A program made the position numbers and the translations under genes. A stretch of DNA of 64,000 nt from Escherichia coli (lineage in GTDB: Bacteria > Pseudomonadota > Gammaproteobacteria > Enterobacterales > Enterobacteriaceae). Under the pieces are notes generated by a model that worked only from the letters and a program-made list of their open reading frames with translations, was not told the DNA's origin and made no database searches. Where the stretch lies: the NCBI RefSeq assembly GCF_022846255.1, contig NZ_AP025682.1; one strand, given 5' to 3'. This document shows positions 32,160 to 56,647 of this stretch, one piece after another (the first letter of the stretch is position 1; each line of letters begins with the position of its first letter).

Positions 32160-32244
32160 AATGTGCCTGTCAAATGGACGAAGCAGGGATTCTGCAAACC
32201 CTATGCTACTCCGTCAAGCCGTCAATTATCTGATTCGTTACCAA

Positions 32245-32292
32245 TTATGACAACTTGACGGCTACATCATTCACTTTTTCTTCACAACCGGC
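32245..32292 (-). pseudogene. Displaced araC 3' remnant (last 15 codons plus stop: AGCEEKVNDVAVKLS*)
   Basis: Minus strand reads GCCGGTTGTGAAGAAAAAGTGAATGATGTAGCCGTCAAGTTGTCATAA, the canonical AraC C-terminus, about 1.8 kb away from the intact araC body. Confidence 0.85.
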
Positions 32293-32313
32293 ACAAAAGA
32301 CACCCTCTGCCTA

Positions 32314-32736
32314 TCATTCGATAGTCTCAAAATATTCCACCTGCAGAGAATCACGGTGCTCAATGATGCAATAACGCTGGAAATTATTTGCATAATCACT
32401 TTTATCATGAAAAAACCATATACAATCGTTTTGTAGACTCGGTCCCATTCTTTTCAAAAAATCTATTAGCTTTGCTTTCTGAAGAAAAATGTTATCTATA
32501 TTTCGCCATGTAACAATCACTCTTGTTTGCATATCATCAACATTATAGTAATAGCTATACTCGGCTACGTTTGATATGTTTGGCAAATTTCGCAAACTCT
32601 CTGGCGTATAAAGGAAAAATGGGGAAAGTTCATGCTGTGTATAGTGATGTTCCTTTGACATCAATGAGATATAAGCATAGAAAAATATAAAGAATAAAAC
32701 TAAAAATGATAATAAAATATAAATATATTTTGACAT
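32314..32736 (-). CDS. Hypothetical membrane-anchored protein, 140 aa (insertion gene B; candidate partner/immunity protein)
   Basis: Track ORF; N-terminal about 21-residue hydrophobic segment YIYILLSFLVLFFIFFYAYISL; ATG 6 nt after the gene A stop (translational coupling); AT-rich codon usage. Confidence 0.7.
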   Translation of the reverse strand: MSKYIYILLSFLVLFFIFFYAYISLMSKEHHYTQHELSPFFLYTPESLRNLPNISNVAEYSYYYNVDDMQTRVIVTWRNIDNIFLQKAKLIDFLKRMGPSLQNDCIWFFHDKSDYANNFQRYCIIEHRDSLQVEYFETIE

Positions 32737-32742
32737 CTCTAC

Positions 32743-33591
32743 TCACGACCTGTGCGGATAATGAGGGTTTAAGAAAAGAAAAAGCGGTCTTTCAAAGGGA
32801 GATTCTGAAAACTTTATAGCTCCCGAACTTGATAATGAACTATACAACTCATGATTTATTCTGTTTTTATCTTTATAATAATTAGTAACAGGTCTATTAT
32901 TATATTGATTATATAACAATGTTGAAAAAGACTCATCTAATGGCTTTATATAATTTAACCATTCTGGAAGCTTCTTTTTTATTAGTTGATTTTTTTTAAA
33001 AGGAGGATGGGTTGTAAATAAGAATGGCGTAAACTCAGTATTTTTAAAATTCCCTGGCGCTCCATATGTATCCCATATTTGTAAGGCTTTTGTGTAAGAT
33101 AAAGGTTTTGCCAATAAAAGTGGATCGGGGCCTGTTCCAAATACACGATAAAAACCAATCAAGTCTGAGACTAAATCTTCTGCACTAAATCCGCTATCAG
33201 TATACCAGTTAAAAATAAATGAGTTTTGCCATGCTTCAAACCTCTTCGCAGTTCCATACATTAACGTTAAGGCAACTCTTGCTTTAAGAGTGGGTGAAAG
33301 ACATGAACGAACCATAACCTTCGTATAAACACCGGTATGAAATGTAAGATCTACTCCTAATATTTTTTTCCGAATTCCCATTTCCTGATGATAATCAACA
33401 GGAAAATACCAATCATGAAATTCATCGTAATATGTTGAAAAATGTTCTTGCTCCAATTTTCTTTTTAATATTCTGGCATCTTGTCCCTGAGCATGCCCCA
33501 AATCGATCCAACCTAACTCTTCGGTATAAACTAATCCATACTTTTTCGTTGTTGCAAATATTCCATCAGTAATATCGTTACGTTTTCTCAT
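32743..33591 (-). CDS. Hypothetical protein, 282 aa (insertion gene A), no family recognised
   Basis: Track ORF 32743..33594 (GTG) trimmed to adjacent ATG; strong Shine-Dalgarno GAGGGGAG 6 nt upstream; no signal peptide or TM segment; Asn/Tyr/Lys/Ser-rich C-terminal third. Confidence 0.7.
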   Translation of the reverse strand: MRKRNDITDGIFATTKKYGLVYTEELGWIDLGHAQGQDARILKRKLEQEHFSTYYDEFHDWYFPVDYHQEMGIRKKILGVDLTFHTGVYTKVMVRSCLSPTLKARVALTLMYGTAKRFEAWQNSFIFNWYTDSGFSAEDLVSDLIGFYRVFGTGPDPLLLAKPLSYTKALQIWDTYGAPGNFKNTEFTPFLFTTHPPFKKNQLIKKKLPEWLNYIKPLDESFSTLLYNQYNNRPVTNYYKDKNRINHELYSSLSSSGAIKFSESPFERPLFLFLNPHYPHRS

Positions 33592-34070
33592 CACAATCTC
33601 CCCTCAAAAAAAACGTATAGCAAATAATATCAATAAGGAAAAATATTATTTTTCAATATTTTTTTGTATACAATTCATTTTATGAATGAATTTACAAAGA
33701 TAGCTGCGCCTGATGCCGCTACACTTTTGCCAGACCATGTTCTCCTCTGAGGGAGTAACTGGCGTTTTTCATAGAATGCCGTACTTTTTTCAACAACTGC
33801 CACATCGAACGGCATTTATGGTGGCGTGAAGTGCCTGCCATAACCGCTCAATGTGGTGTTCCTACGATGAACAAACCGCTTGATATATTCTCCTGATGCA
33901 ACCGGACAATATGTTCATGATGGGTATCCCGATACATAAGCCTTCGTTTTATTTTTACAAAAAGAAATCGTTGTCGATATTTTATCAAGAAAAAAAATAA
34001 TTCAGGTAAAACGATTCAACTAAAAATAACTAAAATTAATCCCCCGTGAAATATATAAATAACGTCAGAT

Positions 34071-38503: not shown

Positions 38504-38525
38504 GTAGCCGCATCAGGTATGTAAC

Positions 38526-38689
38526 GCCTGATGCGACGCTGACGCGTCTTATCAGGCCTACACGCTGCGATTTTGTAGGCCGGATAAGCAAAGCGCATCC
38601 GGCATTCACCGCCTGATGCGACGCCGACGCGTCTTATCAGGCCTACACGCTGCGATTTTGTAGGCCGGATAAGCAAAGCGCATCCGGCA
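38526..38689. repeat. Tandem BIME: two copies of a 79-bp unit, each containing two REP palindromes, in the araA-araD spacer
   Basis: Unit GCCTGATGCGACGC(T/C)GACGCGTCTTATCAGGCCTACACGCTGCGATTTTGTAGGCCGGATAAGCAAAGCGCATCCGGCA at 38526-38604 and 38611-38689 (1 mismatch). Confidence 0.85.
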
Positions 38690-52640: not shown

Positions 52641-53489
52641 ATGGCGACATACCTTATTGGCGACGTTCATGGTTGTTACGATGAACTGATCGCATTGCTG
52701 CATAAAGTAGAATTTACCCCTGGGAAAGATACCCTCTGGCTGACGGGCGATCTGGTCGCGCGCGGCCCGGGTTCGCTGGATGTTCTGCGCTATGTGAAAT
52801 CCTTAGGCGACAGCGTACGTCTGGTGCTGGGTAATCACGATCTGCATCTGCTGGCGGTATTTGCCGGGATCAGCCGCAATAAACCGAAAGATCGCCTGAC
52901 ACCGCTGCTGGAAGCGCCGGATGCCGACGAGCTGCTTAACTGGCTGCGTCGCCAGCCTTTGCTGCAAATCGACGAAGAGAAAAAGTTGGTGATGGCCCAC
53001 GCAGGGATCACGCCGCAGTGGGATCTGCAGACCGCCAAAGAGTGCGCGCGCGATGTAGAAGCGGTGCTGTCGAGTGACTCCTATCCCTTCTTCCTTGATG
53101 CCATGTACGGCGATATGCCAAATAACTGGTCACCGGAATTGCGGGGGCTGGGAAGACTGCGTTTTATCACCAACGCCTTTACCCGTATGCGTTTTTGCTT
53201 CCCGAACGGTCAACTGGATATGTACAGCAAAGAATCGCCGGAAGAGGCCCCTGCCCCACTGAAACCGTGGTTTGCGATTCCTGGCCCCGTTGCTGAAGAG
53301 TACAACATCGCCTTTGGTCACTGGGCATCGCTGGAAGGCAAAGGTACGCCGGAAGGTATTTACGCGCTGGATACCGGCTGCTGCTGGGGTGGTACATTAA
53401 CCTGCCTGCGCTGGGAAGATAAACAGTATTTTGTCCAGCCGTCGAACCGGCATAAGGATTTGAGTGAGGGAGAGGCGGTAGCGTCTTAA
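52641..53489 (+). CDS. apaH: Bis(5'-nucleosyl)-tetraphosphatase (symmetrical) ApaH
   Basis: Track ORF, 282 aa, [20 protein letters not shown]...; metallophosphatase motifs GDxHG, GNHD. Confidence 0.96.
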
Positions 53490-53800
53490 ATCCCGTCGAG
53501 CATAAAATCTAATGCTCCTTTAATCAACGTTCGGTGCGCGCTGGCATCGCAAAATTTCGTTCCCAGCGCGTTAACTGGAACAGTTGCAGTCTCATGCGTC
53601 ATGAGCACATATTCTTTGCCGTCTACCAGTAAAAGGATTGGGTTAAGCCGTTCTGGTGGGCGAATACGGCTAAATCGTTCAATAGGTGTTAATGGAATAA
53701 CGATACGGCGATTAATCTCACCAATAATGTCGCTGGTAACATCAATAACAAAGGGAAACGCGGCGTTCCTGCCGCGACTGCGGTATACCGTAAATTGCAT
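53486..53800 (-). CDS. ccdB: CcdB-family toxin (gyrase poison), chromosomal copy
   Basis: Track ORF, 104 aa; MQFTVY..., [16 protein letters not shown] and C-terminal FMLDGI align with F-plasmid CcdB landmarks; 4-nt convergent overlap with apaH stop. Confidence 0.88.
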
Positions 53801-53802
53801 CG

Positions 53803-54036
53803 CTAGAAGCTCCGGTACTCATCAGAGAAACATCCGGTTTCATCAGCCAATTGATTTAACGCAGCGATAGCTTCTGCGTTCTCTTCACGCCAACGTGTTG
53901 CTGCATGTTTTTTAAGTTCAGCATTGAGCGCAACCGTAAGGGTGGCGCTCATATTTAAGCCTGCATCACGAGCGCGATTGACTAACTCACGGTCGACGGT
54001 GACGGTCACACTTTGTGTGGTACGTTTTGCAGTCAT
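53803..54036 (-). CDS. ccdA: CcdA-family antitoxin, chromosomal copy
   Basis: Track ORF, 77 aa; VTVTVD, RWREENAEA and C-terminal SDEYRSF align with F-plasmid CcdA; immediately upstream of ccdB. Confidence 0.88.
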   Translation of the reverse strand: MTAKRTTQSVTVTVDRELVNRARDAGLNMSATLTVALNAELKKHAATRWREENAEAIAALNQLADETGCFSDEYRSF

Positions 54037-54121
54037 GATCTCGTGCTCCTGTACAATTTATACGTCTAGTATACACGGATATCTGCACGTATCAGTGATG
54101 CCGGAATTCTAATATACAAAA

Positions 54122-56647
<2,526 letters not shown>

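Follow-up and report, generated by a model that had tools for sequence, protein, structure and literature searches.

Escherichia coli contig NZ_AP025682.1 (RefSeq assembly GCF_022846255.1) carries two small open reading frames (ORFs) on the minus strand between the core genes folA and apaH; they encode the antitoxin CcdA and the toxin CcdB. Positions given below are those of the window, the whole stretch of 64,000 nucleotides (nt) of this contig that was analyzed. We identify the pair with high confidence as a chromosomal toxin-antitoxin (TA) module of type II, ccdAB, of the "ccdO157" type and in the CFT073/NRG857c allele, most likely a near-neutral selfish islet. A sequence-only reading had pointed to the two ORFs, and the ORF list and the sequence place both exactly at the coordinates it gave.

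The ccdA gene lies immediately upstream of ccdB in the single-operon arrangement of the CcdA family. The ccdA stop codon (TAG, 53803 to 53805) and the ccdB start codon (ATG, 53798 to 53800) are separated by 2 nt, a gap present in all plasmid and chromosomal relatives of the subfamily that were examined. Together with a GGAG inside the 3′ end of ccdA, this gap gives a layout that looks suited to translational coupling. At the other end, the ORFs of ccdB and the convergent apaH do overlap by 4 nt, as had been noticed from the letters alone. The plus strand reads TCTTAAAT at 53484 to 53491, in which the apaH stop codon TAA occupies 53487 to 53489 and the ccdB stop codon TAA is the reverse complement of 53486 to 53488. 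The overlap with apaH is annotated in all 7 of the 7 ccd-positive loci examined. The annotated start of folA is MISLIAAL; the listed ORF extends farther upstream.

Both proteins were assigned to their families with Pfam. CcdB matched PF01845 with an E value of 7.1e-32 (residues 2 to 103, model positions 1 to 101 of 101), and CcdA matched PF07362 with an E value of 1.5e-26 (residues 8 to 77, model positions 2 to 71 of 71). Among solved structures, CcdB aligned end to end with Vibrio fischeri CcdB (2kmt, E = 5e-17) and F plasmid CcdB (1vub, E = 1.2e-10), and residues 8 to 75 of CcdA aligned with the F CcdA structure 2adl (E = 9e-6). An AlphaFold model of CcdB was built on a 25-sequence alignment and compared with the Protein Data Bank (PDB) by Foldseek. 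The model has a predicted local distance difference test (pLDDT) score of 85.8, a C-terminal helix at residues 87 to 102, and the CcdB fold. Its top 16 matches were all CcdB, with template modeling (TM) scores of 0.79 to 0.88, followed by MazF toxins at about 0.65 to 0.7; the best superposition (TM score, 0.88) was to 4elz_C, from the complex of V. fischeri CcdB with GyrA14. The naming of the ORFs as CcdA and CcdB is thus supported by profiles, solved-structure alignments, and the predicted fold, whose recovery had been proposed as a check on it. The motifs quoted in its favor are all present: VTVTVD, RWREEN, and a C-terminal DEYRSF in CcdA, and MQFTVY, DVTSDII, and RRIVIPL in CcdB. The N-terminal part of CcdA is the ribbon-helix-helix (RHH) DNA-binding region, with the strand QSVTVTV, and the tail that binds the toxin makes up the C-terminal part, in which W49, F70, and R75 are invariant among the aligned relatives. 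Each window protein belongs to its family, CcdA or CcdB, but is not an equivalent of the F protein.

CcdB ends in Asp102-Gly103-Ile104, with Asp102 at the position of F Trp99. The conserved C-terminal residues expected by the sequence-only reading are therefore found in part: Gly-Ile is kept, and the Trp critical in F is replaced. The Asp-Gly-Ile tail occurs in 24 of the 25 aligned CcdB sequences, and only F has Trp there; V. fischeri CcdB, which was crystallized with GyrA14, also lacks Trp at this position. For both reasons, Trp99 does not define the family. Because Asp is conserved across the subfamily, Asp102 is, judging by the alignment, a conserved subfamily state and not a sign of decay; the residue that reviews discuss as a possible inactivating variant is the usual one across many genera. 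The absence of Trp may nevertheless bear on the potency of CcdB.

CFT073 and strain A20 encode exactly the same two proteins as the window (WP_000125566.1 and WP_001160966.1). CcdB is 102/104 identical (98%) to that of O157:H7, with G10 and E28 in place of S10 and V28, and CcdA is identical to that of O157:H7 (77/77). O55:H7 carries the same CcdA and the same S10/V28 CcdB as O157:H7. The 632 bases from 53490 to 54121 are 99.1% identical to those of O157:H7 strains. By these residues, the window allele is of the CFT073/NRG857c type, not the O157:H7 type. The nearest matches found were CFT073 and A0 34/86, which we take to be phylogroup B2 strains, and the whole window is 98.2 to 99.2% identical to strain A20.

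Of the 5426 complete E. coli genomes in which distribution was counted, 5425 matched a 1-kb query spanning the locus, 2021 (37%) over its full length. The ccd islet alone was found in 2024 genomes, in every case as one chromosomal copy. In place of the islet, K-12 MG1655 and E. coli C carry a spacer of 77 bp that contains a repetitive extragenic palindromic (REP) sequence. The K-12 spacer was described in the sequence-only reading as short and empty, and it holds no gene; the use of the islet as a non-K-12 marker holds as well, K-12 being without ccdAB. The occurrence of ccd at this position in O157:H7 and other non-K-12 strains is confirmed by annotation and by the literature, which describes the ccdO157 islet between folA and apaH, the plasticity of the site, and the REP alternative (PMC3184786; PMC7167474; PMC2654758). 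The same position is given in PMC7232551, together with the CFT073/NRG857c allele at this site and the 77 bp of K-12. The locus was rightly judged not to be novel in itself: publications from 2007 to 2009 onward (Wilbaux 2007; Mine 2009; later reviews) cover the module, the site, the patchy distribution, and the decay, all of which are already known. With the exact allele annotated in CFT073 and many other genomes, it carries little weight as a discovery, and its practical value is as a marker for the non-K-12 origin of the window. Coordinates are collected in Table 1.

Table 1. Coordinates of the ccd locus, its flanking genes, and its predicted signals in the window
Feature	Coordinates	Strand	Basis
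ccd islet, ~0.6 kb, 47.2% GC, replacing ~50 bp of the K-12 REP-containing spacer	53491-54098 (approx.)		Alignments with K-12 and E. coli C
ccdA, antitoxin gene, 77 amino acids (aa)	53803-54036	minus	ORF list; Pfam PF07362; protein WP_000125566.1
ccdB, toxin gene, 104 aa, intact; predicted GyrA poison	53486-53800	minus	ORF list; Pfam PF01845; protein WP_001160966.1
apaH, flanking core gene, 282-aa allele, converging on ccdB	52641-53489	plus	ORF list
folA, flanking core gene, same strand as ccdAB, directly upstream	54122-54601	minus	ORF list, annotation
ccdB Shine-Dalgarno GGAG, within ccdA 3′ end, 9 nt before ccdB start	53810-53813	minus	Sequence
TTAA, 4-nt overlap of apaH and ccdB ORF ends (stops included); left edge of variable segment	53486-53489		Sequence
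folA-ccdA spacer, 85 bp, 38.8% GC (window, 52.7%), presumed ccd promoter/operator	54037-54121	minus	Sequence, GC count
Predicted -35, CTGATA	54090-54095	minus	Promoter match
Predicted -10, TATACT, 16 nt from -35	54068-54073	minus	Promoter match
ccdA Shine-Dalgarno AGGAG	54046-54050	minus	Sequence
Imperfect 15-bp inverted repeat CGTGTATACTAGACG, candidate CcdA/CcdB operator, overlapping predicted -10	54063-54077	minus	Comparison of upstream regions

The left edge of the islet is the apaH stop codon, and in alignments with empty sites the three site states diverge 0 to 1 nt past its TAA. The right edge is uncertain within 54098 to 54112, that is, 10 to 25 nt past the folA stop codon. The variable segment has a GC content of about 47%, against 53 to 55% in its neighbors, and no flanking direct repeats, integrase, or insertion sequence (IS) were seen at the islet edges. 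ApaH is 282 aa long (ending in GEGEAVAS) where ccd or a ccd remnant is adjacent and 280 aa long (ending in DLGEAAAS) in empty-site strains, so that a two-codon indel at 53464 to 53472 tracks the state of the spacer. The last 25 nt of apaH differ accordingly, and the variable region therefore reaches about 25 nt into the gene. About 2449 genomes carry the long tail, approximately as many as have the ccd or the remnant state (2021 + 537), a linkage that was only roughly checked.

Two further states of the site were observed. The third, represented by E. coli UTAK-1 (locus L003, 3190 to 4614, equivalent to window positions 53490 to 54121), holds a DUF4291 gene, a gene for a 155-aa hypothetical protein, and a 45-aa ccdA remnant. 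A total of 537 of the complete genomes have this state, O111:H8 and H19 strains among them. Its ccdA remnant differs clearly from the window ccdA, has an internal deletion, and lacks the promoter, for which reasons a different ccd lineage seems to have occupied the same folA-apaH site. The 2009 study of Mine et al. reportedly described this third state already and catalogued the four states of the site, namely, REP, ccd, a larger insert that includes a ccdA remnant, and the latter insert together with an IS. The rare fourth state (strain 2017-02-2CC, locus L009, 1497 to 2227) retains a 72-bp 3′ remnant of ccdB that still overlaps the apaH stop codon, and the remainder of the islet has given way to a 204-aa gene annotated as "IS1096 element passenger TnpR family protein."

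No plasmid source of the islet was found, the nearest plasmid-encoded CcdB being only 74% (Hafnia) or 71% (Klebsiella aerogenes) identical. A ccdB 98% identical to that of the window was seen at 288719 to 289030 of CP054241.1, an 834-kb record labeled as an E. coli plasmid. Because of this size and because apaH lies beside the gene, CP054241.1 most likely represents a piece of chromosome or a replicon that was misassigned, not the carrier of a plasmid-borne copy. Relatives were also sought in species-representative genomes by two peptide patterns, a scan by which some relatives can be missed. Among its 24 loci, ccd stood beside folA and apaH in one Escherichia locus only and at this site in no other genus; the other 23, at 48 to 62% identity, lie elsewhere.

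The folA-ccdA spacer is AT rich, as had been described from the sequence, and CTGATA and TATACT, 16 nt apart, form its sole promoter-like match. Upstream regions of 110 nt, ending at ccdA, were compared in 26 loci (the window, 3 plasmids, F, and 21 scan loci). An inverted repeat, CGTGTA-N3-TACACG with at most 2 mismatches, lies 35 to 41 nt before the ccdA ATG in 18 of 24 related loci, from nine genera (Escherichia, Hafnia, Serratia, Pectobacterium, Erwinia, Pantoea, Izhakiella, Photorhabdus, and Xenorhabdus); no counterpart was found upstream of F ccdA. The window form is CGTGTA-N3-TAGACG. The sequence-only reading had reported GTATAC-type palindromes in the spacer, which is correct for one exact GTATAC (54069 to 54074) and two copies with one mismatch (GTATAA, 54058 to 54063, and GTATAT, 54112 to 54117). 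Plural exact sites are not present, and the exact copy is better described as part of the CGTGTA-N3-TAGACG repeat, in which it forms the junction of the left half-site and the spacer. Enrichment of GTATAC was rejected, with 5 copies in the window against 7.1 expected. The subfamily thus has its own upstream repeat, distinct from the GTATAC array of F, as a concrete candidate operator.

From knowledge of the family, a sigma-70 promoter within the 85-bp spacer would drive ccdAB. This promoter would be repressed by a CcdA dimer, bridged and strengthened by CcdB, through the CGTGTA-N3-TAGACG repeat and nearby half-site-like hexamers over the -10. This logic is borrowed from F, where the binding of CcdA to an array of GTATAC-like sites is weak and CcdB links CcdA dimers into a chain that represses (PMC5389731), and would operate here on a different site. 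The disordered C-terminal tail of CcdA is expected to neutralize CcdB, and CcdA to be degraded by Lon. Freed CcdB would then bind the GyrA dimer around Arg462, trap the gyrase cleavage complex, and halt growth. Toxins of the CcdB family poison DNA gyrase via GyrA, with resistance conferred by GyrA R462C; for the O157:H7 allele, which is reported to be toxic, this rests on the literature (PMC10886550). On the chromosome, the module would behave as a near-neutral selfish islet and not as a maintenance device, since its patchy presence (37% of genomes) and the recurrent loss of ccdB fit this role best. Contributions of the locus to antibiotic tolerance or stress responses have been reported, and its role is unsettled in the literature.

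How firmly such a module can be read from the window depends on several alternatives. That the ORFs arose by chance or were mis-called, and that the region is no TA locus, has practically no probability left; it is ruled out by full-length profile E values of 1e-26 to 1e-32, the match of the predicted fold, an operon layout conserved in more than 40 loci, and consistent annotation by the NCBI pipeline. Other points do weigh against the main reading. Trp99, essential to killing in F CcdB, is Asp in the window protein. The NCBIfam equivalog models for F CcdB and CcdA (NF010262 and NF010264) gave 61.2 bits against a cutoff of 147 and 38.6 bits against 100, far below the cutoffs, and what is known of the F mechanism in detail does not necessarily apply here. 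For the promoter there is one match, at 9/12 of the consensus, of a kind that shuffled sequences give about once per kb, so the argument for it rests on position, not score. The operator motif was derived from the same sequences on which it was scored, which makes the shuffle statistics circular, and its evidence is therefore the constant position in otherwise unalignable DNA. Reviews regard the toxicity of CFT073/NRG857c CcdB as unproven and point out that CcdB of the CFT073 type has Asp at the killing-critical Trp99 position of F (PMC7232551; PMC11205521). It is accordingly conceivable, if unlikely, that the toxin is attenuated or dead in the window allele and that the locus acts through CcdA only, as a repressor or spare antitoxin, or not at all, as a decaying remnant. 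The ccd system has been described as degenerating within E. coli (PMC2654758), the toxicity of chromosomal CcdB has been called attenuated (PMC10886550), and that of the CFT073 type has been called unproven (PMC11205521). Pseudogenes of ccdB do occur in other strains, with ccdA intact each time (loci L006, L007, and L008). A 13-bp deletion (window-equivalent 53605 to 53617) alone affects ~260 to 306 of ~2020 ccd-positive genomes, and other broken alleles carry a C84* nonsense mutation or a +1 frameshift at window-equivalent 53680. Decay of the module, toxin first, is visible in present-day complete genomes. Mine et al. reportedly found an inactive toxin in about 30% of variants. The window ccdB, however, is full length, without frameshift or premature stop. 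G10 is the subfamily consensus and E28 a residue type common in relatives (D/Q/E), and Asp102, as the conserved subfamily state, is no lesion. The window sequence, being itself part of the 25-sequence alignment, necessarily keeps all 19 of the invariant columns. We consider the window CcdB probably active. On the alignment, its allele agrees better with the subfamily consensus than does the O157:H7 allele, for which toxicity is reported, because G10 is near-invariant in the subfamily where O157:H7 has Ser.

Equally doubtful is the proposal that the locus is no neutral islet and has been kept by selection as a host-beneficial device for stress survival, persistence, or anti-addiction. The chromosomal ccd operon is said to contribute to multidrug tolerance (cited in PMC10886550 and PMC11059956), and ccdB of NRG857c is induced by bile salts, by acid, and inside macrophages (PMC7232551; PMC11205521), although induction by stress is no evidence that the toxin of a TA operon is active. 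An association with particular gyrase and topoisomerase IV alleles has also been reported (bioRxiv 10.1101/2021.09.24.461737). Retention of ccd in 37% of the complete genomes would fit selection, but the module is absent from the other 63%, and ccdB has been inactivated repeatedly and independently. Chromosomal ccd is reported not to stabilize an unstable plasmid, prevent large deletions, or cause post-segregational killing (PMC2654758). F CcdA neutralizes chromosomal CcdB (PMC7354431; PMC10305079), and chromosomal CcdA does not neutralize F CcdB, which argues against anti-addiction toward F (PMC7354431); one review words the cross-neutralization in the opposite direction (PMC10886550). The near-neutral selfish islet is the reading that we retain.

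Transcription at the junctions of the islet was considered separately. No terminator-like element was found in the folA-ccdA spacer, past the end of ccdB, or past that of apaH on the plus strand; three terminator-like matches inside ccdB, on its own strand, are at chance density. Folding of the junctions gave only weak AU-rich hairpins, apart from one on the plus strand inside ccdB. This strong hairpin, GGTGCGCGCTGG...CCAGCGCG (53533 to 53575), is antisense to ccdB and lies ~45 nt past the apaH stop codon. The 131 nt that contain it outdid every one of 200 shuffles in folding (z = -2.9). As the hairpin lacks a U-tract, it is no terminator of the classical type. No known RNA family was matched in the ccd region, and four Rfam matches lie elsewhere in the window. 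As no terminator-like element was found at the junctions, read-through from folA and convergent transcription of the apaH operon are possible. A far-fetched extension is that the islet is wired into two core transcription units, that host transcription could shift the toxin:antitoxin balance, and that the two-codon lengthening of apaH belongs to the same remodeling of the junction. If so, transcripts reading through from folA would supply ccdAB independently of its autoregulated promoter, and convergent transcription of surA-pdxA-rsmA-apaG-apaH would run antisense over ccdB and then ccdA. No discussion of either process at ccd was found in the literature on the locus.

Two observations concern other parts of the window. 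A second non-K-12 islet lies between yabI and araC (32229 to 33860) and is carried in full by 486 of the 5426 complete genomes. Its minus-strand ORFs, of 140 aa (32314 to 32736, with a hydrophobic N terminus) and 283 aa (32743 to 33594), have no significant Pfam match, and a fragment of an IS630-family transposase lies beside them. The araA-araD spacer (38509 to 38689) contains tandem 85-nt repeat units, probably an array of the REP or bacterial interspersed mosaic element (BIME) type; their copy number differs from that in A20, giving an 85-nt offset.

Among known ccd systems, that of the F plasmid shares with the window the two protein families, the fold, the operon order, the RHH N terminus of the antitoxin, and a perfect GTATAC 33 to 38 nt upstream of the ccdA ATG. 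Identity is only 29% for CcdA and 37% for CcdB, and F ccdAB is plasmid borne, whereas that of the window is chromosomal. In F, about eight GTATAC-like sites in an array of 113 bp make up the operator (PMC5389731); the window and its relatives have CGTGTA-N3-TACACG instead. The chromosomal CcdB of V. fischeri (2kmt, 3jrz, and 4elz) is the best match among solved structures, at ~35% identity, but ends in Thr-Gly-Ile where the window protein has Asp-Gly-Ile and comes from another genus and context. The same subfamily includes the ccd pairs of Hafnia, K. aerogenes, IncL/M plasmids, Serratia, Pectobacterium, Erwinia, Pantoea, Photorhabdus, and Xenorhabdus, with 55 to 74% identity to the window in CcdB and 57 to 74% in CcdA, an Asp-Gly-Ile/Val tail, and the same upstream repeat. 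Unlike the window pair, none of these relatives adjoins folA or apaH, and the site is Escherichia specific in the sample. The ccdO157 module of O157:H7 (EDL933/Sakai) has the same site, gene order, spacing, and 4-nt overlap with apaH as the window; it differs in CcdB (S10/V28 against G10/E28) and in the ApaH tail, which has G where the window has S. The ccdAB-1 module of adherent-invasive E. coli (AIEC) NRG857c, which is that of uropathogenic E. coli (UPEC) CFT073 (Bustamante et al. 2020, PMC7232551), is the same allele in the same context, with no difference from the window at the protein level, although the window as a whole belongs to a different strain.

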